From NCBI GenBank assembly GCA_041665465.1, contig JBAYIU010000001.1, positions 1,081,733-1,145,732 on the forward strand: 64,000 nt of DNA. Direction: 5' to 3'. Below the pieces are notes generated by a model. The model had not been told where the DNA came from, did no database searches, and saw only the letters and a list, made by a program, of their open reading frames with translations. Within the stretch, counting starts at the first letter, position 1, and each line of letters begins with the position of its first letter. The translations under genes were made by a program, and so were the position numbers. This DNA comes from Candidatus Woesearchaeota archaeon (GTDB lineage: Archaea; Nanobdellota; Nanobdellia; Woesearchaeales; GW2011-AR9). Below, one piece after another: positions 1,716-21,489 of this stretch.

Positions 1716-1904
1716 ATGACTAAAAAGAATGCTTGCAAACACTGTAAGATGTTGATTGAAGGAGAAAAATGTCCTAATTGCCATTCCGAAAGTGTTACTG
1801 GTAGTTGGCAAGGAAGAGTATTCATTAATGATGTTAATAAGTCTTTAATCGCTGAAAAGATCGGGATTAAAGTTAAAGGCGAATATGCCATTAAAGTAAG
1901 ATAA
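1716..1904 (+). CDS. spt4: Transcription elongation factor Spt4 (RpoE'')
   Basis: 62 aa with a C4 zinc ribbon, CKHCK...CPNC. It sits directly after rpoE'. Confidence 0.75.
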   Translation: MTKKNACKHCKMLIEGEKCPNCHSESVTGSWQGRVFINDVNKSLIAEKIGIKVKGEYAIKVR

Positions 1905-1905
1905 G

Positions 1906-2235
1906 GTGGAAAGAATGCAGATTAATATTCAAGAAAAAAAACATAATCTTTTTTTAAAAAGAGTTGAAGTTAAAGGGAAGGTTACTTTTGAAGCAGCTAC
2001 TCCCAGCAATGTTCAATTAGCTGAAGTATTAGCAAAAGAAATGCAGGTTAAAGATGCAACTTTAGTGGTTATCAAACATCTATATACCACTTTCAGTCAT
2101 CGTGATGCAGCTTTTGAAGCATTGGTTTATGACACTGTTGATGCCAAGAACCATACTGAAAAATTAACTTCACAACAACGTAAAAAACTTGCTGAAGCTA
2201 GCAAAGCAGCTGCCGCTTCAGCTGAGAGCAAGTAG
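1906..2235 (+). CDS. rps24e: 30S ribosomal protein S24e
   Basis: 109 aa with S24e-like sequence. It sits in the conserved Spt4-S24e-S27ae position. Confidence 0.8.
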   Translation: MERMQINIQEKKHNLFLKRVEVKGKVTFEAATPSNVQLAEVLAKEMQVKDATLVVIKHLYTTFSHRDAAFEALVYDTVDAKNHTEKLTSQQRKKLAEASKAAAASAESK

Positions 2236-6975: not shown

Positions 6976-7950
6976 CTAATCAAACCATTCTGGAAAGAAA
7001 TCTAACTTCTTTTCTTCTACAATAATCACTGATTCGGTTTTCTTAATCAGTTCTGGGAAATCGTTTCTGATCTTATGGGTTAGTCCATAAAAGTCTTGTA
7101 ATGTTTCCGTCTCTATTTCCAATTCCATTTCCCACGGCCCGAGAGATTCGATAACATGAATCACATTAGGAAGTTCCATGCAGTAGTTAATAAATCGGTC
7201 AATCTCGTGTTCATAATTCTTCAAATAAAGACATAATTTGAAAAAATTGTATCCTATCTTTTGTGGATCAATAAACGTCACATAACCTTGAATAACTCCT
7301 TTCTTCTCTAGGTCTTTGATTCTACGTTGAGCAGTTTTAATATTCATTTTAAACTCTTTGACTAAGTCCATATAATTGAAGCGAGCGTAATTGGAGATAA
7401 ACCTCATGATAGACTTCTCTTCTTCAGATAAATCTACTTTGTCTTCATTCATAAACTTCTTAACTTTCTTTAGAACTGCTCCTTTTTTATTAATTAAATA
7501 TGTTCTGGGAGAAGTATGTCCTTCTGATAAAAACACTATATCATAATTGGTAATAAATCTTTCAAACTTGTTAAAGAAGTCTTTCTTCACAGAAGTAAAC
7601 TGATTCATGTTCTCTACATACGCACCAATCATCAAGTCCCAGCTTCCTTCACACTTGGCTACCCAAGAGATTCTTTGATCTTTCTGTAGGTAAGCATAAA
7701 ACTCTTTCTCTTCTTCTGGCGTGAATCCGGAAAGTTGGAAGTAAATCTTTCCTAAAAATAGTCCTAATCTGGCTAGTGAGGGTTGAACTACAAACTTCTT
7801 GATGACTCCTTCTTTAAGGAGTTGATTAACGTGATATTGGACATTATTCTTTCCAATACCTAACTTTTGTCCAATCTTAGAGAAACTCTCTCTAGCATTG
7901 GTGTCTAACTCTAATAAGATCTTGCGGTCAATCTTGTCTAATTTGGGCAT
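6976..7950 (-). CDS. Lrp/AsnC-family transcriptional regulator, tandem two-domain form
   Basis: Two repeats of an HTH_AsnC plus RAM-like unit (DRKILLELDTNARESFSKIGQKLGI; ...IMRFISNYARFNYMDLVKEF). 324 aa. Confidence 0.7.
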   Translation of the reverse strand: MPKLDKIDRKILLELDTNARESFSKIGQKLGIGKNNVQYHVNQLLKEGVIKKFVVQPSLARLGLFLGKIYFQLSGFTPEEEKEFYAYLQKDQRISWVAKCEGSWDLMIGAYVENMNQFTSVKKDFFNKFERFITNYDIVFLSEGHTSPRTYLINKKGAVLKKVKKFMNEDKVDLSEEEKSIMRFISNYARFNYMDLVKEFKMNIKTAQRRIKDLEKKGVIQGYVTFIDPQKIGYNFFKLCLYLKNYEHEIDRFINYCMELPNVIHVIESLGPWEMELEIETETLQDFYGLTHKIRNDFPELIKKTESVIIVEEKKLDFFPEWFD

Positions 7951-8062: not shown

Positions 8063-8629
8063 ATGGTTAAGAAAAATAGATTATTGTACTTCTTTTCGGA
8101 GAGATATAAGGATCTTTATGATCGAGAAGAAAGATTAGAACAACGAGTGCTAGAAATAGAGCGGGAAGAAAAGAATGGACTCTCTCATTTTGGTATCGAA
8201 TCTATTACTGATCCAGGATATAAAACGCCTCCAGATCTTTATGGCTCTTGCGGGGAATCAATGGTTATGATAACCCTCAAAGATGGAAGAGAAGTTTTCA
8301 TTGAACAATTAAGGTATAATCAATGGTGTACTTTCGTTCGTTACTATTTTGGTGATAAAAATTCTAGAGGATGTTTGGAAGTGTATGATTATGGGACTGA
8401 GGCCAAGGTTAAGATAAACCGGGAACAGGAATCAATAAAGCAACGCTTAGGAGAACTTCAGACAATAGTTCAGAATTGTCAAAACTTGATCTGTTCTTGG
8501 TACAGAAAAGATTATGGTTTGGCGGGGAAATATGCTGGGGTGATTTACTGTATGGAACCAGCAGCAAGGCTTATTGATAGGTACAATTATTACACCCCTA
8601 ATCACACCAATCAGTGTCTCGAGAAGTAA
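8063..8629 (+). CDS. Hypothetical protein
   Basis: 188-aa ORF with no recognisable motif. The divergent intergenic region carries a TATA-like element. Confidence 0.4.
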   Translation: MVKKNRLLYFFSERYKDLYDREERLEQRVLEIEREEKNGLSHFGIESITDPGYKTPPDLYGSCGESMVMITLKDGREVFIEQLRYNQWCTFVRYYFGDKNSRGCLEVYDYGTEAKVKINREQESIKQRLGELQTIVQNCQNLICSWYRKDYGLAGKYAGVIYCMEPAARLIDRYNYYTPNHTNQCLEK

Positions 8630-8987
8630 TGGTGATCTCTTTTCTTTCTTTTTTCTCAGTAATCTCAGAAAAATAACTCTTTTTAGGTTGTTCTTTTGTT
8701 TCTAAAGAAGGCTTATCAAAATCTATCTGAGAAACATCTTTCACTTGGTTCATTTCAAACACTTTTCTTTTGTTAACATTACCGCAACGTGCACATCGGA
8801 AGTATAATCCCCATTTCCCAATGCAAGTTTCTAGATACTCCCCACAAGCACATTTCATCTCATTCATAAGAGCAGCACGATGTTTTTCACAGACGGGAAT
8901 CTCTTGTTCATTTCTGGTTGTAGCCTGTTTGCCACAGAAAGGACAAGTATCTAGTTTAGATTCACCATAACGTTTAGGGAGATACAT
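8598..8987 (-). CDS. Zinc-ribbon protein (topoisomerase-type C4 zinc fingers)
   Basis: CPFCGK...C..H and C.CGEYLETCIGKWGLYFRCARCGN, resembling zf-C4_Topoisom repeats. Confidence 0.45.
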   Translation of the reverse strand: MYLPKRYGESKLDTCPFCGKQATTRNEQEIPVCEKHRAALMNEMKCACGEYLETCIGKWGLYFRCARCGNVNKRKVFEMNQVKDVSQIDFDKPSLETKEQPKKSYFSEITEKKERKEITITSRDTDWCD

Positions 8988-9029: not shown

Positions 9030-9443
9030 TCAATATAAGGTATGCTTCTCACTTTGATTCTCTTTCTCTTGCAAATTCTTTCTATCCATCCATTGAAGAT
9101 ATTTTCTTAATGATGATCTGAAATCCAACAGGACCATTCCGGCATTAAACTCGGAAATATGGCCTGGTTTTCCTCTGAGGATATCTTCAATGGTAAAATG
9201 ATGAAGAGTATACGATGTCATTGAACCAAAAAGTAAAGGGGCAGTTAAGTTAGGACAATCCTCTTCAGCTTGCTTCCTCTGGAAGTAAGTTCCGTGAACG
9301 CAAGAACTGTGATCAAAATAGTCGTGCTCTTTAACAACGTAAATCTCTATTTCTGGATAATTCTTTAAGGTTTCGCTTCCCACATATATTGATAAGATTT
9401 TTTCCGTTAGATCTTTAGTTAATTGCATTTTAGTTTCCTCCAA
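9030..9443 (-). CDS. Hypothetical protein, last gene of the HD-hydrolase operon
   Basis: 137-aa ORF overlapping the HD gene end by 14 nt. GC is higher than the backbone. Confidence 0.4.
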   Translation of the reverse strand: MEETKMQLTKDLTEKILSIYVGSETLKNYPEIEIYVVKEHDYFDHSSCVHGTYFQRKQAEEDCPNLTAPLLFGSMTSYTLHHFTIEDILRGKPGHISEFNAGMVLLDFRSSLRKYLQWMDRKNLQEKENQSEKHTLY

Positions 9444-9963
9444 ACATGTTTTTGTAATGTTCGTAGTATTGTCCTAATTCGAAAGCCATGGCTGGACATA
9501 CTTTTTCTGCAAGGGGCAGATAAAATTGCTCACATTCCTCTAAGTAACGTTTTGCTCCTTGAAGAGAAAGAGCTTCTAAGCTGGTCATGTTGTGCAATCT
9601 ATCCGCTAGCTTAACCCTCTGCACCCAAATCGGTGCTTCCAACAATCGGTTCTTGTACTGCTCTCGGTCAACGTTCCGGGTCAATAAATACACTCCTTGA
9701 GCTACGCTTTCCCCAAACACGGACTTTATTTGGTCTAAAGTAAGTGCAGTATCTTCAACCGTATCATGTAGCCAAGCTGTAGCTAGGGCAGTTTCTTCTT
9801 GAACACCATATCTGCGAAGCAATTCCGCGACTGCTGCCGGATGAGTCACATATGGAGAACCATCCTTTTTTCTAAACTGTCCTGCATGATACCTTTCAGC
9901 GTATAATCTAGCGATATCTTCGGATCCCATTTTTACTTTCCTCAATTTGATGGTATGTTTCAA
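9430..9963 (-). CDS. HD-domain (p)ppGpp hydrolase-like protein (RelA/SpoT-type small alarmone hydrolase)
   Basis: HAGQFRKKDGSPYVTHP...WLHDTVEDT...VKLADRLHNM is the RSH hydrolase signature. About 165-177 aa and single-domain. The true start may be the internal Met at MGSEDI. Confidence 0.75.
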   Translation of the reverse strand: MKHTIKLRKVKMGSEDIARLYAERYHAGQFRKKDGSPYVTHPAAVAELLRRYGVQEETALATAWLHDTVEDTALTLDQIKSVFGESVAQGVYLLTRNVDREQYKNRLLEAPIWVQRVKLADRLHNMTSLEALSLQGAKRYLEECEQFYLPLAEKVCPAMAFELGQYYEHYKNMFGGN

Positions 9964-10186
9964 GGTCTATCTTAATCCAAAATGGGTCTCCAGACGGACG
10001 AGAATATTCATCCGGAACTGAATCTGGCATTGTTCCCCAATAATCCTTTATGAATTGTTGACGATCTTCCACACTCAAGTGCAAGCTGTATCCGTCTGGT
10101 CTGATCCCCCATCCTCTCTCAGATTCATCCCATTCTTGTTTTACTACTAATTTTTCTTCCAATGATGTCATTTTAATTACCTCCAA
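9908..10186 (-). CDS. Hypothetical small protein upstream of the HD hydrolase
   Basis: 92-aa ORF overlapping the HD gene start. GC is elevated. Confidence 0.35.
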   Translation of the reverse strand: MEVIKMTSLEEKLVVKQEWDESERGWGIRPDGYSLHLSVEDRQQFIKDYWGTMPDSVPDEYSRPSGDPFWIKIDLETYHQIEESKNGIRRYR

Positions 10187-10302
10187 TCTAATACTTTATA
10201 CTCATTCAAGATATTTATAGTTTAAATTAAGACAAAATAACTAGACTATTACAAGTTAAAACAAACAAAAAGTTTAAATAAGAAACAAACAACTCTTCCC
10301 TC

Positions 10303-11163
10303 ATGGAAAAGAAACTCACCGCTCAAGGACCTAAAGATCGTAAGTCTTATACTGTAACTCTGCCCATAGAATGGGTCAAGTCTCAGCATCTTGACAAGAC
10401 GAAAATCATTATGATGAAAGTGGTGGGTAGTCGAGTGGTTTTATCTACCAGAAAAGAAACGCTTGAACATGAAGTGATTGATGGTGAAGCACATTCTAAT
10501 TCTCTGATTAAAGTGTTGCAGGGGTTATATCGACTCGGGGTAAATGAGATCAAGATCACTTACAAGAATCCCAAGGTCATCACTGCTGTTTCTCAGATTG
10601 TTAATGAAAAATTAATCGGCTACGAAGTCATGGAGCAAAAACCCAATTATTTAATCTTGCAAGATATTACTAGAGAATCTAGTGAAGATTTTGAGGTTAT
10701 CTTAAGAAGAATCTTTCTTCTGATGATGGAATTAATGAATTGCCAAGAAGAAACCCAAACCAACAGTTTGTTCAACAATATGAAAAAGTTGATTAACTAT
10801 TGTCAGAGAATTCTAGCCAAGTGGGGATCTTCCGATTTTCTTAAGACTCCTTTCTATTACGTTTTGCTTGATCATCTGGAAAAATTAGGTGATGAGTATT
10901 CTTGGATCAATTCTCTTAAGATCAAAGATAAAAATGACCTAGTTACTCTAAAAGAAATCAATCTCTGTGCTAGAAAAGCTTACGAATTATTTTACAAGTT
11001 TGATGCTTCAGAATATGATCATTATGAACATCAAACCTATTTAATCAAACATAGAATAACCTCTTCCGGACATTTAACTGTCTTCGATCTGCACTTGCAT
11101 AATCTAGCCAGAGTTTTGAATACCATTTATGGGGACATTTTTGTGTTAGGGTTTAAGAAGTAA
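10303..11163 (+). CDS. AbrB/SpoVT-N-terminal, PhoU-like C-terminal regulator (paralog 1 of 4)
   Basis: N-terminus KSYTVTLPIEWVKSQHLDKTKIIMMKV is a swapped-hairpin AbrB-like domain. The C-terminus is helical and PhoU-like. Same architecture as 20560-21489, 24940-25860 and 52515-53432. Confidence 0.65.
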   Translation: MEKKLTAQGPKDRKSYTVTLPIEWVKSQHLDKTKIIMMKVVGSRVVLSTRKETLEHEVIDGEAHSNSLIKVLQGLYRLGVNEIKITYKNPKVITAVSQIVNEKLIGYEVMEQKPNYLILQDITRESSEDFEVILRRIFLLMMELMNCQEETQTNSLFNNMKKLINYCQRILAKWGSSDFLKTPFYYVLLDHLEKLGDEYSWINSLKIKDKNDLVTLKEINLCARKAYELFYKFDASEYDHYEHQTYLIKHRITSSGHLTVFDLHLHNLARVLNTIYGDIFVLGFKK

Positions 11164-11170
11164 CTTATTC

Positions 11171-12181
11171 TTACTCCCAACAGATCTTTGGGAAATAAGT
11201 ATAATAATGTTCTTCATACCCCATCAGGATCTCATAATCTTTTAACTCTGGAGAAAAATGTTCTTTTAATTCAATCATGGTTTGATAGAACTCTTCGGTT
11301 CTTTTCACACAAAGATAGATGATCACATTAAACTTTCCAATGGTCTTGCTAGCCCAAATCACATTTTTATTAAACTTTAAGAAAGAACCTAGCTGTTGAT
11401 CTTTTTTTTCATCTAAGTTATGCAAATCTAGCAATAGGAAATATACTGTATATCCGATGTTAGAATAACTAATAATAGGAGAAAACTTTTGGATTATCCC
11501 TGCTTCTTGCATCCTCTTTATGCGATAACTAATGGTATCAGAAGATGTTCTGGTCATTTCTGCTAGTTTAAACAGGGGAATGGTGGCATTAAGAGATAAT
11601 TGTTTTAACACCAGTAAGTCTGTTTTATCTAAACTCCCTTCTTGTGTCTTCTTCTTTACATTGAGGTTCTCCTCCTTAAGATGAAGAAAGCTTCTTGGTA
11701 CTGCCTTATTAATATAATTCTTGGATATAATCAAGAGTTCATATTCTTTAAGATAGGAAGAAAGGTCTTTGATAATTTTGTTCACGACTAGATCTAATTC
11801 TGAAATATCCTTTGCAGCGATACTTACTTCAAAATTATACTTGCCAATGATTTCTATTACTGCTTTAATATAAGGGTTGGATTTAAGTAATCTAACTACG
11901 GTTGAGGTTACTTCTTTGTTTAACTGGTTCAATTGAAGAAATAAGTGATAGGTGTTATATCCTAATTTATTTAGATTCACCAAAACTAGATATCCTTGAA
12001 TTAGACCTTGTTTTTCCAGATTGTTAATTCGGTATCTTACTGAATCCTTAGACAAACCTACCTGCTTAGCAATAATAGTATTAGGAAGACGAGCATTTTC
12101 AGAGAGAAGAGCAAGAATCTTTTTGTCTTTTAAGTCAATCTTTATCTCTTTTTCCGAAATTATTCTTTGATTGAATCGCAT
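11171..12181 (-). CDS. Lrp/AsnC-family transcriptional regulator, tandem two-domain form
   Basis: Two HTH_AsnC units (DKKILALLSENARLPNTIIAKQVGLSKDSV...; DLLVLKQLSLNATIPLFKLAEMTRTSSDTISYRIKRM). 336 aa. Confidence 0.7.
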   Translation of the reverse strand: MRFNQRIISEKEIKIDLKDKKILALLSENARLPNTIIAKQVGLSKDSVRYRINNLEKQGLIQGYLVLVNLNKLGYNTYHLFLQLNQLNKEVTSTVVRLLKSNPYIKAVIEIIGKYNFEVSIAAKDISELDLVVNKIIKDLSSYLKEYELLIISKNYINKAVPRSFLHLKEENLNVKKKTQEGSLDKTDLLVLKQLSLNATIPLFKLAEMTRTSSDTISYRIKRMQEAGIIQKFSPIISYSNIGYTVYFLLLDLHNLDEKKDQQLGSFLKFNKNVIWASKTIGKFNVIIYLCVKRTEEFYQTMIELKEHFSPELKDYEILMGYEEHYYTYFPKICWE

Positions 12182-12278: not shown

Positions 12279-13361
12279 GTGATCTTGATGGAAGATAAAC
12301 TAAATACCTCTTTGGTGGCGGGATGGTCGTTTACTAAACGTTGTAATTTACGTTGTATTCACTGCTATGGTTCTTCTGGATGTAGAGCACCAGACGAATT
12401 AACTTTAGAAGAAGCCTTAAATGTGGCTGATAAACTTAAGACTTCTTGTGTAGAAGCAGTAAATTTTGGTGGAGGGGAATGTTGTCTTAGGGAAGATTTT
12501 ATTCCTTTATGTGAACGCTTACACTCTTTGGGTATAAAGATATCTTATACCACCAATGGAACTACCCTAAACAGAATCAGATCCCATCTATATTTATTTA
12601 ACGATGTGGGGGTTAGCTTAGATTTTCCGGATGCAGAAAGGCACGATTATTTTCGAGGAGGAAAAGGCATCTTTGCTAAAGCAGTGTCATCGTTACAAGA
12701 ATTAGTTGAAAGGGGGGTTGATACGGAGATAGTTACTTGTTTAACCAAGATGAATTGCTCTGAGAAAGATCTTTCTGATATGTATCAATTAGCCAAAGAG
12801 GTAGGAGTAGATTATTGGAGATTAAATCGTTTCAGAGCTAATGGTAGAGGGAAAGAGAATCAGAGTACACTTTCACTAACTCCAGAAGACCTCAGGAAAG
12901 CTTATACTTTTCTTTCTCAGTATGTGGATAATTCAGTTTCTGTTCCTGAACCAATCTATCGGGCTGCTTTTGGGGGTAAGTATACTTTTCCTGGAGATCC
13001 TTCAGGATATACTGCTTTTAGAATTCAACCTAATGGAGAAGTAAGTCCTTCAGTGTTCTTGACTGAAAGCGGAGGTAACATCAAGTATAATTCTCTCTCC
13101 GAGATTCTCGGTTCTCCTATCTTTAGATCAATCCGAGAAAGAAATCCGCAAGGAAAGTGTCAATCCTGTTCTGCTTACTCTCACTGTAAAGGAGGAGATG
13201 CAGGAGCTTCTTACTTAGAATATGGACATTTCAATGGTCCTGATCCTCTTTGTTGGCTTAGTGATAATGACATTAGGGGAATTGTTCAGCAGGAAATAAG
13301 TGAGACTTGGAACGTTCATGAGCGTTACCTTTGCACTCTTTATGTTCCTGTAAGAAAATAA
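12279..13361 (+). CDS. Radical SAM protein with a Cys-rich C-terminal auxiliary-cluster (SPASM/twitch-like) region
   Basis: CNLRCIHC (CxxxCxxC) motif, the GGGEC SAM-binding motif, and C-terminal GKCQSCSAYSHCKGGDAG...DPLCW. Confidence 0.75.
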   Translation: MILMEDKLNTSLVAGWSFTKRCNLRCIHCYGSSGCRAPDELTLEEALNVADKLKTSCVEAVNFGGGECCLREDFIPLCERLHSLGIKISYTTNGTTLNRIRSHLYLFNDVGVSLDFPDAERHDYFRGGKGIFAKAVSSLQELVERGVDTEIVTCLTKMNCSEKDLSDMYQLAKEVGVDYWRLNRFRANGRGKENQSTLSLTPEDLRKAYTFLSQYVDNSVSVPEPIYRAAFGGKYTFPGDPSGYTAFRIQPNGEVSPSVFLTESGGNIKYNSLSEILGSPIFRSIRERNPQGKCQSCSAYSHCKGGDAGASYLEYGHFNGPDPLCWLSDNDIRGIVQQEISETWNVHERYLCTLYVPVRK

Positions 13362-13374
13362 TGGAGGTATAACT

Positions 13375-14373
13375 ATGGTCGAACATCAAAAATTGCCGAA
13401 ACTAGACTTGAACATTACTAATCGATGTAATCTACGTTGTAAACATTGTGCTTTCGATTCTGGAGTAGAACAAATGTCAGAAATGAGTTTAGAAAAGATC
13501 TTGGAGGTCTTGCACCAAACCAGAGAATTAGGTGGATCTAAAGTGGATATTACTGGAGGAGAACCAACTCTACGAGATGATTACCTGAAGATTATTAAAG
13601 GTGCTAAAGAGATGGGGTATCAAGTAGAATTAGTCACTAACTCTCTGCGGTTAGATCATTCTACTTTAAAGACACTTCATTCATTAGATCTAGACAGTTT
13701 AGCGGTTAGCTTAGATGGATATACTTGGCAAACGCATGGTTTAATTCGTAATACCTCCTCAGAAGAGTTTGAGAAAGTAGTTAGAAATATTTCTGATGCA
13801 GTTAATTTGGGAATAAAAACCAAGATTAACACTTTAGCTTGTCAAGAAAATATGGAAGAGATTCCTCGGATTATTCAACTGGGAGAAGAGAAAGGAGTGA
13901 AAGAGGTAGGATTATATTATTTCACTCCCGTGGGAAGAGGAGCTCACCAGAATTTGCATTCTGTGGAACCTCTTACTTGGTTAAGATTTGTCCGAGAGAG
14001 ACTGGATCGAGAGTATACTCTTAAAGTTTCTTTAGAGATACCTTTGATTGAGAAAGAATTATACTCCCCTAAAATGGGGTGTATTTGGGATGTTGATCCT
14101 TTCCATCTTCAGATCTTACCCGAAGGAAAAACTTATCCTTGCGCCATCATGGCGTCTTATCATCTCCCTATTGGTAATTTGTATCATCAGAACATTAGTG
14201 AAATCTGGAAAGATGAATCTGTCTGGAGCAGGTATCATTCTCAGTTAGAAGGACACTTTAATAGGAACAAGGGGGGTTGTGTAGCTTTCCGAGACTTCGA
14301 TCTAAAAGATTATCCAGGATATTCTTTTGTTTGTCCATTAAGAAAATATTCTCCGCAAGAGGTGAGAAGATGA
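13375..14373 (+). CDS. Radical SAM protein, second of the tandem pair, with a C-terminal Cys-rich region
   Basis: CNLRCKHC, GGEPTLR, C-terminal YPCAIMASY...GGCVAF...FVCP. Good RBS-like GGAGG upstream. Confidence 0.75.
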   Translation: MVEHQKLPKLDLNITNRCNLRCKHCAFDSGVEQMSEMSLEKILEVLHQTRELGGSKVDITGGEPTLRDDYLKIIKGAKEMGYQVELVTNSLRLDHSTLKTLHSLDLDSLAVSLDGYTWQTHGLIRNTSSEEFEKVVRNISDAVNLGIKTKINTLACQENMEEIPRIIQLGEEKGVKEVGLYYFTPVGRGAHQNLHSVEPLTWLRFVRERLDREYTLKVSLEIPLIEKELYSPKMGCIWDVDPFHLQILPEGKTYPCAIMASYHLPIGNLYHQNISEIWKDESVWSRYHSQLEGHFNRNKGGCVAFRDFDLKDYPGYSFVCPLRKYSPQEVRR

Positions 14374-18736: not shown

Positions 18737-20575
18737 ATGGGATTAGCTGATAGATTCATAGAAGCAAGAGAAGCTTTTGAACTGGCTTATGATAGAGTTG
18801 CTAATGACCATTCTCGCTCATTACTGGATCCTCTGGTTCTTCCAGAGGTAGAACAATACTTGCCTGTACTTGCCGAAGCGGTTCGTGAAGCAAGTCTTCT
18901 TTCTCCACTTGAGATAGGAGAACTCATTTTTCATCCTAAAAAGGCTCAACGAGGTATGGGTACTGCAGAATGTCTTCTATTTGATTATCAGCTTGCTGCT
19001 GAAGGGTTTGGTTTGGCCAATGTAGAAAGAACATTGGGAGAATTTGCAGAATTAAGTGACTTCATGAGTTTAGTTATTGCGAAATTATCTACTTCTCCTG
19101 ATCTTCCTGCTGTTGAGAGAATATCTCTTATTGGTGGTTCAAAAAGAATAAAGTTGGTTCAAGGGACATCTGAAGTCAAAGGTGACAGTGCTGCTCAGAC
19201 CTATCTTGCTCGGGAAAGAGAAGCTCACTGTTTAGTCTTTCAAGGAGATGCCCCTCAACAAGTTCACAATGAAGTTACTGATTTACTTCTAGCTAGATTT
19301 GGTCCTCATAGTCCTTACTTTAAGAAAACAGGTAGATACATCCGGCCATATCATGTTGATGCTAAATCTGGTTTGGCAACCATTGCTCAACTTGATTCTG
19401 TTCCTGAGGTTCATAATATTGGTAATTTATCTGTAGCCCCTGCCTACTTTAGGGTAGGGGGAATGTTTATTGATTATCAAGATCTAGATGTGGTGATTGG
19501 TGAGCTTAAATCCTTTGGGTATAGTGTTAGTCCAGGTAGTTCTAATTCCTCTCTTACTGATCGTTTATTATCCGCAGGAGTACCTGAACCATTGGTTGAA
19601 CCATTAATCCAAAGTGTTAATGCCCAGATCGATCGACTAGATCATATCGTTACGGATACTATGACTGGGATTATGGGTCATGGTTGCGTAGGAAGATACG
19701 TTTCTTCAGAAGGAACGTATTGGTTTAAGATAGATACTAATTATTCTGCAGCGTATAAGTCTTCTCAGATTCCTGCGTTAATTCATGCTCGAGCAGAAGC
19801 AGGTAGTGAATTAGCCCAAGCCCTAGCTAGAAGAATTCCTTGCACTTTATCTGGTCTTCCGATTCAAGTAGGAGATTATCATGTTACTTTTTCTCGAGAT
19901 GCGAACGAAATGATGGTTCAGCCAGATTTAGTAGAAAGATCTATCCTGTCTGTAGAATTAGGGAGAGGAATAGGTCCCGAGATGCTTCAAAGGATTTATA
20001 CTACTGCATTATATCATGAAGTTTCTACTGATCTTAGTAAGGATAATCCTGATCCTTTGTTAAGCTCGGAAATTTTCCCCACCAATTTAGATCGGGAACA
20101 ATTGATAGCTCGTTTTAATGGAAGATTTACAGATTTTTCTTCTTTATTCAACAGAACTATTGATGGGGGCTATGAAGAAGGACGTGCTAGGTTATTAGAA
20201 CATCAACTTTCTGGGTCAATTCAAGGTATCTATGACAACAAACCTGAGAACTATGTGGGGGCTTGTTGTGTTGATCTTGGAATATCCAAACAAGGGGACG
20301 AAGTAGATGATTTAGCTAGATTGATGTTAGGAAAGGAAGAATTTGTGAAAAATCCCATTCTCTTAAATAATTATGTTGGTGCTTATATCAGAATTCGTCA
20401 AGGAATTCAGAAGAAATATCGTGGAGAAGCAACGTATCATCCTAGTGAAGAATTGTCTGAATTAGTTAGTCTACAATTACAATATGGTACTTGGAGAATG
20501 ATGGGATGGAGTGTAGTAAGGGGAGATGAAGAAGGATTAACTAAATATTTGCGATGTGCTCAAGAGTTTGTCTGA
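18737..20575 (+). CDS. Large hypothetical protein (612 aa)
   Basis: Long ORF with consistent coding potential and elevated GC (about 42%). No motif recognised. Confidence 0.5.
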   Translation: MGLADRFIEAREAFELAYDRVANDHSRSLLDPLVLPEVEQYLPVLAEAVREASLLSPLEIGELIFHPKKAQRGMGTAECLLFDYQLAAEGFGLANVERTLGEFAELSDFMSLVIAKLSTSPDLPAVERISLIGGSKRIKLVQGTSEVKGDSAAQTYLAREREAHCLVFQGDAPQQVHNEVTDLLLARFGPHSPYFKKTGRYIRPYHVDAKSGLATIAQLDSVPEVHNIGNLSVAPAYFRVGGMFIDYQDLDVVIGELKSFGYSVSPGSSNSSLTDRLLSAGVPEPLVEPLIQSVNAQIDRLDHIVTDTMTGIMGHGCVGRYVSSEGTYWFKIDTNYSAAYKSSQIPALIHARAEAGSELAQALARRIPCTLSGLPIQVGDYHVTFSRDANEMMVQPDLVERSILSVELGRGIGPEMLQRIYTTALYHEVSTDLSKDNPDPLLSSEIFPTNLDREQLIARFNGRFTDFSSLFNRTIDGGYEEGRARLLEHQLSGSIQGIYDNKPENYVGACCVDLGISKQGDEVDDLARLMLGKEEFVKNPILLNNYVGAYIRIRQGIQKKYRGEATYHPSEELSELVSLQLQYGTWRMMGWSVVRGDEEGLTKYLRCAQEFV

Positions 20576-21489
20576 GAAAAGTTTATTGCAAATAATGGCA
20601 CAGTAGTAAGATAAATCGTTCGAGCTAACTCTCCACAATAATATAAAATTAGGTTTTCTTCCCCTTTTGATTTTTTAAGAAGAAGAAATATTTCCCCATA
20701 AAGGAGATGTTTATTATTGTCATTTACTTGTTCTATTATCTTAAGATCTTTCTTTGAAAAACCTTCATATAGTAGTTCAAAACTGGCTTTAATCTCGGTA
20801 AATAATTTCAAGGTGCTGTTAGAAAAAACTGGCTTATTCTTTCCTTGCATTACTTCGTAAAGATGCAATAAACTATGTTGTGTTAGCAACAATCGTGTGT
20901 ATAATTCCCAGTAGGAGTTTATTCTCTCTTCTACAAATCTTCTTTTGGAGATATTTCTATTGCAAAAGTTAGAGTAACGATCAACATTTTTACTATTTTG
21001 TATTAAATGAGACAAATGAGAAAAATCCTTGTTCTTAAAATCGTTTTCTAATTGCTCAAAAGAGTTCTTAATAATTAGAAAGATTCGGCGCAGAAGTACT
21101 TCTTGCTTCTCCTCACTTGGTTCAGTTACGTTTTCCAAGATTAAGTAATTGGGGCTTTCTTCCACAATTTCAAACCCTAACAATCTTGCTTCTACTGTGT
21201 TCTTAATCAAATTTTTCTGTTTAGGGATGTTAAAAAATACTTTTATTCGGTCAAAGCCAGTACGATAAAGGACATTCAGATTACTGCGAATAATCTGTTC
21301 ACTTTCAGTAGATATCTTTAGGACAGAACTCTTCTTCTCACCTTTTGATTCGGTGCTGATGATAACTTTATTTTCTATTTCTTCTATATCTACTTCTTTT
21401 CCTGCCTTCAATCCGTTGAGTTTGGTCCATTTAGCGGGAAGAGTTAAAGTTAAAGCGTTATCCCCCTGCTTGATCAGTTTTCTACGCAT
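20560..21489 (-). CDS. AbrB-N/PhoU-like regulator (paralog 2 of 4)
   Basis: MRRKLIKQGDNALTLTLPAKWTKLNGLKAGKEVDIE at the N-terminus. Aligns with the other three paralogs. Confidence 0.65.
   Translation of the reverse strand: MRRKLIKQGDNALTLTLPAKWTKLNGLKAGKEVDIEEIENKVIISTESKGEKKSSVLKISTESEQIIRSNLNVLYRTGFDRIKVFFNIPKQKNLIKNTVEARLLGFEIVEESPNYLILENVTEPSEEKQEVLLRRIFLIIKNSFEQLENDFKNKDFSHLSHLIQNSKNVDRYSNFCNRNISKRRFVEERINSYWELYTRLLLTQHSLLHLYEVMQGKNKPVFSNSTLKLFTEIKASFELLYEGFSKKDLKIIEQVNDNNKHLLYGEIFLLLKKSKGEENLILYYCGELARTIYLTTVPLFAINFSQTNS

Follow-up and report, generated by a model that had tools for sequence, protein, structure and literature searches.

Small alarmone hydrolases (SAHs) are known as antitoxins, as counter-defense enzymes of phages, and as tuners of metabolism. 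These Mn2+-dependent enzymes remove the 3′-pyrophosphate of (p)ppGpp and (p)ppApp, and some members remove the 2′-phosphate of NADPH. Here we describe an SAH gene and the genes encoded with it in a 64,000-nt stretch of DNA (hereafter "the window"; assembly GCA_041665465.1, contig JBAYIU010000001.1, positions 1,081,733 to 1,145,732) from a Candidatus Woesearchaeota archaeon, a member of DPANN. The SAH itself is ordinary for Woesearchaeota and is simply a new member of a known family. However, the operon in which it resides and the partner protein encoded beside it appear to be undescribed, and no protein partner of an SAH was found in the literature that we searched by full text.

SAHs have been reported to serve as universal antidotes to toxic small alarmone synthetases (toxSAS) and to be common in phages (10.1101/575399). 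An orphan SAH hydrolyzes alarmones as well as NADPH and aids its bearer in interbacterial competition (PMC9765508), and exported alarmone synthetases exist (PMC12691689). In 2011, SAHs of the pbcSpo, Mesh1-L, and divSpo types were noted in a handful of archaea and were ascribed to transfer from bacteria (PMC3153485), and neither Haloferax nor Sulfolobus was found to contain (p)ppGpp (PMC8646023). Li et al. 2021 (PMC8407392) reported RelA/SpoT-family genes in 41.7% of Woesearchaeota and predicted that they derive from Bacteria. The premise of a first-pass annotation of this DNA, that archaea generally lack RelA/SpoT homologs (RSHs), therefore fails for this lineage.

The window protein resembles characterized SAHs (Mesh1, PbcSpo/ATfaRel, PaSpo, and XccSAH) in carrying a single HD_4 domain within about 166 aa and a full metal-binding and catalytic set, and it matches MESH1, Lmo0812, and the SAHs of Pseudomonas aeruginosa and Corynebacterium glutamicum. 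It differs from them in belonging to a small clade, in sharing its operon with a conserved partner of 87 aa and a 132-aa protein specific to the clade, and in having no synthetase nearby. The hydrolase domains of long RSHs (Rel/SpoT) are its best-scoring relatives, both among solved structures and among genomes, but the window protein ends at residue 166 and lacks the synthetase, TGS, and ACT domains of those enzymes. It shares with the DPANN genes of Li et al. a woesearchaeotal host and an inferred bacterial origin, whereas the passages of that report retrieved by term search give presence and absence only, and domain content, operon, partners, and regulator do not appear in them. Finally, like the toxSAS-SAH type IV pairs such as FaRel-ATfaRel, the window locus places an SAH in a tight operon with small genes. 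Unlike those pairs, it lacks the defining toxic synthetase and has a separate, divergent regulator.

On balance, we think it probable that the three genes form a regulated operon in which the small protein and the SAH act together, most likely to dispose of pyrophosphorylated nucleotides. Judged from gene neighborhoods, the 87-aa protein is a conserved partner of SAH-type hydrolases in DPANN archaea and in bacteria of the candidate phyla radiation (CPR).

By its sequence, the 166-aa protein is a RelA/SpoT-type SAH with intact catalytic residues. It matches Pfam HD_4 (PF13328) with an E value of 1e-20 and 74.5 bits (cutoff 27.2) over 152 of 156 profile positions, far above the 24.6 bits obtained with the generic HD model. 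TIGR00691 (spoT_relA) is matched in its N-terminal hydrolase part only (positions 3-148, E 2e-27). HD_4 spans residues 18-154 of the 177-aa open reading frame (ORF), and no second domain was found with Pfam or NCBIfam. The description of a single-domain protein of SAH size thus stands. Among solved structures, the best match is the long-RSH hydrolase domain of Bacillus subtilis Rel (E 3e-18), followed by Listeria Lmo0812, human MESH1 (9e-15), and bacterial SAHs.

When aligned to B. subtilis Rel, the SAH keeps R44, K45, Y50, H53, H77-D78, E81-D82, and KLADRLHNM, and the hydrolase motifs quoted in the first-pass annotation are all present and in register. As established for Rel(Seq), these positions are Mn2+ ligands, the catalytic pair, and substrate contacts, and H53, H77, D78, D144, E81, D82, R44, Y50, and N148 (Rel numbering) make up the metal-binding and catalytic set. 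The corresponding residues of the window protein are R20, Y27, H30, H55-D56, E59-D60, K107, D110, and N114, each of which is retained in 25-27 of 27 partner-linked SAHs; for H30, H55, D56, E59, D60, D110, and N114 the count is 26-27 of 27. The protein is consequently of the RSH type rather than a generic HD phosphohydrolase, with the metal-binding His and Asp residues conserved.

All four ORFs that had been listed for the locus exist in the window, namely 9430-9963(-) of 177 aa, 9908-10186(-) of 92 aa, 9030-9443(-) of 137 aa, and 10303-11163(+) of 286 aa. However, the starts of the first three are superseded by ATGs at 9930, 10171, and 9428, which are probably the true ones and would give products of 166, 87, and 132 aa. 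These starts are favored because the NCBI product MFA6461850.1 is exactly the 166-aa SAH beginning at 9930, because the closest SAH relative (P0001) is also 166 aa long, and because a GGAGG or GAGG motif precedes each ATG. Specifically, GGAGGT, GAGGA, and GGAGGA lie 7-8 nt 5′ of the ATGs at 10171, 9930, and 9428, respectively, and such Shine-Dalgarno (SD) 5-mers are found ahead of 13 of 57 window genes compared to a background of 4%. With these starts, the 87-aa gene overlaps the beginning of the SAH gene by 23 nt, as had been proposed for both flanking ORFs, whereas the 132-aa gene begins 1 nt past the SAH stop codon without overlap. With the 23-nt overlap, the 1-nt gap, and the SD motifs, the three genes make up a tightly coupled operon in the order 87 aa, SAH, and 132 aa. 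The closest relative of the locus, L001 from a sister genome, has an identical gene order and also keeps the 23-nt overlap between the 87-aa gene and the SAH gene.

The first-pass annotation described both neighbors of the SAH as being of unknown function and the arrangement as deserving a look. Neither protein has a Pfam, NCBIfam, or PADLOC family, and the look was warranted: The 87-aa neighbor proved to be a conserved SAH partner and the 132-aa neighbor to be specific to the SAH clade. The 87-aa protein has more than 120 homolog clusters at 42-69% identity, none with a Pfam domain, and the named ones are from Parcubacteria and Sungbacteria. Ten columns of the family are invariant and are concentrated in the two motifs listed in Table 1, and an invariant hairpin spans W14-H31. 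The AlphaFold model is confident (predicted local distance difference test score, pLDDT, 93.5) and has its elements in the order beta-beta-alpha-beta-alpha-beta, and no convincing fold match was found for it in the PDB. A weak match to phrog_11243 (6e-5) was also observed.

The three homologs whose contexts were looked up among the top 26 matches all adjoin an HD_4 gene. These contexts are of an archaeal type and a Parcubacteria type, with the gene order reversed between them. In archaeal-type loci (L085-L087), an AbrB-like regulator diverges from the small-protein gene, which is preceded in some arrangements by a 79-aa paralog and is followed by the SAH gene. In Parcubacteria-type loci (L088-L092), a TrmB regulator diverges from an SAH gene that is followed by the small-protein gene. 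To count adjacency from the small-protein side, 80 metagenome loci found with the 87-aa family profile were used. An HD_4 gene adjoins the small-protein gene in 24 of them, 22 times on the same strand, in either order and mostly overlapping or no more than 44 nt apart, and twice on the opposite strand. When the count is restricted to loci flanked by 600 nt or more on each side, 14 of 40 have such a neighbor. The binomial probability of this adjacency is about 1e-26 under a generous null of p = 0.012 per locus. The 22 nonredundant pairs persist to about 30% SAH identity, and mean pairwise identity is 31% among the SAHs and 52% among the small proteins. The association between the two genes is statistically strong and evolutionarily deep.

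One locus (L149, 2926-3864(+), on a 155-kb contig) carries a single in-frame ORF of 313 aa, in which the small domain occupies residues 22-97 and HD_4 residues 127-287. This ORF is either a natural fusion or a frameshift error, and a linker seems to have taken the place of the C-terminal third of its small domain. In L085, the divergent 79-aa paralog (RQDWWEYDDWGQSPGGYSYH; 1859-2098(+)) immediately precedes the canonical copy of 85 aa, which is followed by the SAH gene, as a tandem duplication of the partner gene. In the CPR-type locus L090, phosphoribosyltransferase and NUDIX genes (1582-2506) lie just upstream of the TrmB regulator, and a DksA/TraR-type zinc-finger gene (7411-7785) lies about 3 kb downstream of the SAH/small-protein pair. 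Such genes may tie the pair further to the physiology of nucleotides or ppGpp.

The small protein also has other neighbors. In AbrB-type loci without an SAH, the gene directly after it encodes an HAD hydrolase (L114, 5e-21) or a branch-1 histidine phosphatase (L139, 1e-36). An NYN nuclease gene (4e-40) takes this place in L164 and L160, and in L118 the small protein is followed by an unknown protein of 274 aa, and a MazG gene lies close by. When 107 immediate same-strand neighbors were classified with Pfam, HD_4 was obtained 15 times, NYN three times, GIY-YIG twice, and His_Phos_1, Inositol_P, HAD, NUDIX (Nudt16-like), RecA, and gp32 once each among other singletons. It is mainly because five unrelated phosphohydrolase superfamilies adjoin its gene that we think the small protein works with a phosphohydrolase. 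The family is likewise present on 98 viral contigs, mostly in a T4-like setting of replication and late transcription (late sigma factor, clamp loader, and baseplate wedge genes), and it occurs in huge phages of about 600 kb and in Streptomyces phages (phage records LR756511.1 and OR725497.1). None of the 80 viral loci examined from IMG/VR (L173-L252) has an HD_4 neighbor. A 232-aa neighbor of the viral small protein recurs in 45 loci and has no PHROG, and in L256 and L257 (4001-5021) a 124-aa phage homolog is immediately followed by an RLIG1-family RNA ligase gene amid small unknown ORFs.

Given a tightly coupled common message and the interchangeable phosphatases found as neighbors, the small protein would most likely be a regulatory or substrate-presenting subunit for the phosphohydrolase, and the 87-aa protein and the SAH would act together. 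The divergent AbrB-type protein probably represses the operon through the conserved palindrome and TATA block described below. In an organism with a minimal genome, the purpose of the operon would most likely be the removal of pyrophosphorylated nucleotides that are unneeded, not otherwise degradable, or received from neighbors, be they alarmones originating from neighbors or toxins, or related metabolites. Several observations weigh against this interpretation. No alarmone synthetase was seen in the 64 kb examined of a 1.56-Mb contig. The divergences of SAH and partner correlate weakly (Spearman 0.30), and pairing with an SAH is not obligatory for the small protein, which has an HD_4 neighbor in 24 of 80 cellular loci and in 0 of 80 viral ones. 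Two members of the SAH clade (L002 and L003) lack the 87-aa gene, and each phosphatase other than HD_4 was met only once. In addition, the operator is a putative one, assigned from conservation.

A wider proposal, which is possible but which we hold tentatively, is that the 87-aa protein represents a new, widespread, and very slowly evolving family in DPANN, CPR, other bacteria, and T4-like, jumbo, and Streptomyces phages that serves as a dedicated phosphohydrolase partner, whether by sensing, by regulating, or as a substrate adaptor. Its presence in ultra-small symbionts would turn the SAH into a regulated system of two components that deals with pyrophosphorylated nucleotides or RNA ends. 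If such a dedicated partner exists, it would reveal an unrecognized layer of alarmone-related metabolism outside the classical stringent response; if the partner is irrelevant, the locus is just another SAH that a DPANN genome acquired horizontally. A conserved partner offers a handle on what alarmone hydrolases do in organisms that possibly produce no alarmones, all the more as it is also found with other phosphatases and in phages and has a slower rate of evolution than the SAH. Furthermore, its family is small, predicted to be well folded, and uncharacterized, and it offers clear invariant residues for structural and biochemical work.

Three other functions overlap with the disposal of pyrophosphorylated nucleotides and cannot be separated from it by sequence. 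One is immunity, wherein the SAH would be a stand-alone antidote to toxSAS, to secreted or injected synthetases, or to enzymes that pyrophosphorylate tRNA 3′ ends, delivered by neighbors, hosts, or viruses, and the small proteins would be accessory. SAHs neutralize all toxSAS tested, as do phage SAHs (10.1101/575399), and the window SAH matches the phage phosphohydrolase family phrog_990 (E 9e-37). Moreover, Xanthomonas is protected by an orphan SAH when it competes with other bacteria (PMC9765508), alarmone synthetases that are exported are widespread (PMC12691689), and attachment to other cells is the way of life of DPANN and CPR organisms (PMC8407392). However, neither a synthetase nor a toxin gene lies nearby, PADLOC gave no match of note, and the dedicated divergent regulator and housekeeping surroundings (EF-2, EF-1alpha, and ribosomal proteins) resemble a regulated metabolic operon rather than a defense island. 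We regard immunity as unlikely, and note that it is compatible with the explanation that we prefer rather than exclusive of it. The more specific suggestion that the locus is a toxSAS/antitoxin module is not supported. A six-frame regular-expression search of the 64 kb for synthetase motifs (EIQIRT, GYxSxH, DxxGxRhh, and RTxxMxxWA) was negative, which agrees with the earlier remark that neither neighbor carries such motifs, and both neighbors are far too small to be synthetases. The sole PADLOC match, to AbiEi (E 0.006), was taken as noise, and membership in a defense system was rejected.

Another possibility is that the enzyme is a Mesh1-like metabolic phosphatase that acts on NADPH or another 2′- or 3′-phosphorylated cofactor or nucleotide, with the operon tuning such pools. 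Human MESH1 is among the solved relatives, Mesh1 and XccSAH hydrolyze NADPH (PMC9765508), (p)ppGpp was not found in the archaea tested (PMC8646023), general phosphatases (HAD, His_Phos_1, and Inositol_P) serve as alternative neighbors of the small protein, and genes for nucleoside-diphosphate kinase (NDK) and a thymidylate-kinase-like protein lie within the window. An NADPH phosphatase cannot be told from a ppGpp hydrolase by sequence, but the SAH scores higher against long-RSH hydrolase domains than against Mesh1, and it retains the equivalents of R44, K45, and Y50, which in Rel contact the guanine and the 3′-pyrophosphate. We regard this role as quite unlikely. Processing or repair of RNA ends, in which the small protein would recognize the end of an RNA or tRNA and the enzyme would remove a 3′-(pyro)phosphate or cut, is very unlikely. 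NYN (three loci), GIY-YIG (two), Nudt16-like NUDIX, and HAD phosphatase genes do adjoin the small-protein gene on the same strand, a phage homolog adjoins the RLIG1 RNA ligase gene, and SAHs can counteract pyrophosphorylation of the tRNA 3′-CCA (10.1101/2021.04.30.441581). However, each of these associations is seen in one to three loci only, and the window contains no RNA family. It is extremely improbable that there is no functional unit at all, such that an acquired SAH merely sits beside unrelated small ORFs and a small number of related genomes inherited the adjacency by descent. The window is indeed closely related to L001, many small-protein loci have no SAH, and L001 has an unrelated 96-aa gene in place of the 132-aa one. 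Nevertheless, adjacency persists at about 30% SAH identity, in both gene orders, in archaeal- and CPR-type contexts, and with different regulators, and one fusion (L149) is present.

The divergent 286-aa protein was described previously as a PhoU-like regulator that faces the operon. A divergent regulator is indeed encoded, but PhoU is barely supported and an AbrB-type domain is indicated instead. PF04014 (AbrB/MazE/SpoVT) is found in 11 of 12 homologs (best 1e-8), with a weak match in the window protein (E 0.09), whereas PhoU (PF01895) is matched by two of 12 homologs at E 0.014 and by the window protein not at all at E values up to 1. A search of the PDB with the family profile returned no solved relative and no PhoU structure. 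The regulator is placed divergently in L001, L002, and L085 as well, and also in 12 metagenome loci, and a TrmB-type regulator occupies the equivalent position in 14 loci of the CPR type. A 309-aa paralog is encoded in the window at 20560-21489(-), with 32% identity over 185 aa and an AbrB/MazE N-terminal match of E 1.2e-6, and L001 also has a second such gene. The AbrB-type regulators look like a multicopy family in these genomes with an uncharacterized C-terminal domain.

Between the regulator and the operon lies a near-palindrome, AATAGT-cta-GTTATT, at 10236-10250, followed by the conserved block ATTTTGTCTTAATTTAAACTATAAATAT at 10211-10238. L001 has a perfect version of this palindrome (AATAGTgtaACTATT), and L085 has a related one (GTAATATTAC). 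A roughly 25-nt block, TTTTGT.TTA(A/G)T(T/G)TAAACTAT(A/T)TAT, is common to the window, L001, L002, L160, and L161, and the regulators of the latter four are 88, 62, 44, and 46% identical to that of the window, respectively. We infer that this conserved region contains the TATA box and operator of the operon. The intergenic region also holds two TTTAAA-type boxes 52 nt apart. One of them, in TTTAAATA at 10273-10280, lies about 27 nt before the regulator ATG and is a putative TATA box of a leaderless regulator transcript. No SD motif precedes this ATG at 10303, and the regulator mRNA is probably leaderless.

The 132-aa protein is almost an orphan and matched only itself in a word-indexed search of 5.8 billion proteins. 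An exhaustive HMMER search recovered the protein itself, P0252 (114 aa, 37% identity), and one 1086-aa protein with seven matched stretches. A 123-aa protein from L002 aligns with both the 132-aa protein and P0252 and shares the motif listed in Table 1. All three known members of this family (in the window, L002, and L253) are encoded directly downstream of an SAH of the window's clade; in L253, the partial ORF lying upstream is an HD_4 C terminus (E 2e-31). We infer that the 132-aa protein is a clade-specific accessory. Its AlphaFold2 model is mediocre (pLDDT 68.8) and gave no fold match. An AAA_32 assignment (E 0.007) failed its cutoff and was discarded. Distant homology between the 87-aa and 132-aa proteins is likewise not supported: The order of their secondary-structure elements is the same, but the hhalign probability is 0.2%. 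In L001, the position of the 132-aa gene is filled by an unrelated 96-aa gene (10467-10757(+); motif VVCDTFDWEDYPVYV) whose product has no Pfam, PHROG, or PADLOC family, and in L002 an unrelated 107-aa gene stands where the 87-aa gene would be. The contents of the accessory slots beside the SAH have been swapped independently.

In the word-indexed search, the SAH has only four close relatives, at 82, 50, 48, and 42% identity, beyond which scores fall to bacterial RSHs at no more than 39% identity and 88 bits. The 82% relative is that of L001, which is syntenic across the whole region. A scan of species-representative genomes gave, among the matches listed, bacterial long RSHs only (Saccharibacteria and Actinomycetota, 37-45% identity, with Rel of these groups at 39-43%). 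About nine further members of the SAH clade were recovered through the partner gene. In a neighbor-joining tree of 146 sequences (no support values), the window SAH falls in a 13-member clade of partner-linked SAHs, and the remaining partner-linked SAHs are placed elsewhere. The first-pass annotation regarded the GC content as clearly elevated and horizontal acquisition as likely. The elevation is real, in that the SAH gene has the highest value of 67 window genes (0.437 versus 0.364, z 2.8), but it is modest. The excess is mainly at codon position 1 (0.569), and the third-position value (0.371, z 1.6) equals that of the neighbors. The nearest named relatives are bacterial, in agreement with a bacterial origin, but recent transfer was rejected because the third-position GC content is unexceptional and the locus is syntenic in L001 at 82% SAH identity.

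Table 1. Features of the SAH locus, in window coordinates
Feature	Position	Strand	Basis
Small alarmone hydrolase, 166 aa	9430..9930	-	Single HD_4 domain; Pfam, TIGR00691, and PDB matches
First operon gene, 87 aa, conserved unnamed family	9908..10171	-	Motif Q.W.ESERGWG.RPDGYSLH ... VPDEYSRP
Third operon gene, 132 aa, three-member family	9030..9428	-	Motif V.EEHDY[YF]DH.S....YF
Divergent 286-aa regulator, AbrB/MazE/SpoVT-type N-terminal DNA-binding domain	10303..11163	+	PF04014 in homologs
Putative operator and TATA region of the operon	10211..10250	-	Conservation; near-palindrome and conserved block
Second copy of AGTTTAAAT... repeat	10271..10294	+	Direct repeat D1, 24 nt, 75%, spacing 52

The surroundings of the operon are archaeal, with genes for EF-2, EF-1alpha, Rpb7, and NDK in the window and additional genes for Spt4, S24e, S27e, L7Ae, S28e, and L24e in L001. 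The whole 64-kb window contains no tRNA gene detected by ARAGORN and no Rfam family at the gathering threshold. A 612-aa ORF at 18737-20575 has no Pfam domain. The module is bracketed by proteins of 324 aa (6976-7950(-)) and 336 aa (11171-12181(-)), each with two Lrp/AsnC-type winged-helix domains (HTH_24/HTH_AsnC, two matched stretches). Such tandem duplication is uncommon, and the 324-aa protein is syntenic in L001.

A convergent gene pair, 8063-8629(+) and 8598-8987(-), overlaps by 32 nt at the 3′ ends. The first gene encodes a 188-aa protein with no family, and the second encodes a 129-aa Cys-rich zinc-ribbon protein with a weak Lar_restr_allev match (E 0.001). This pair is kept in L001 directly downstream of the SAH operon and is absent in L002. 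On the other side of the module, two consecutive radical SAM and SPASM genes at 12279-13361(+) (360 aa) and 13375-14373(+) (332 aa), followed by the thymidylate-kinase-like ORF, could be a cluster for peptide or cofactor maturation. This cluster is apparently missing from the matching stretch of L001, where a Na+/H+ exchanger gene abuts the regulator.

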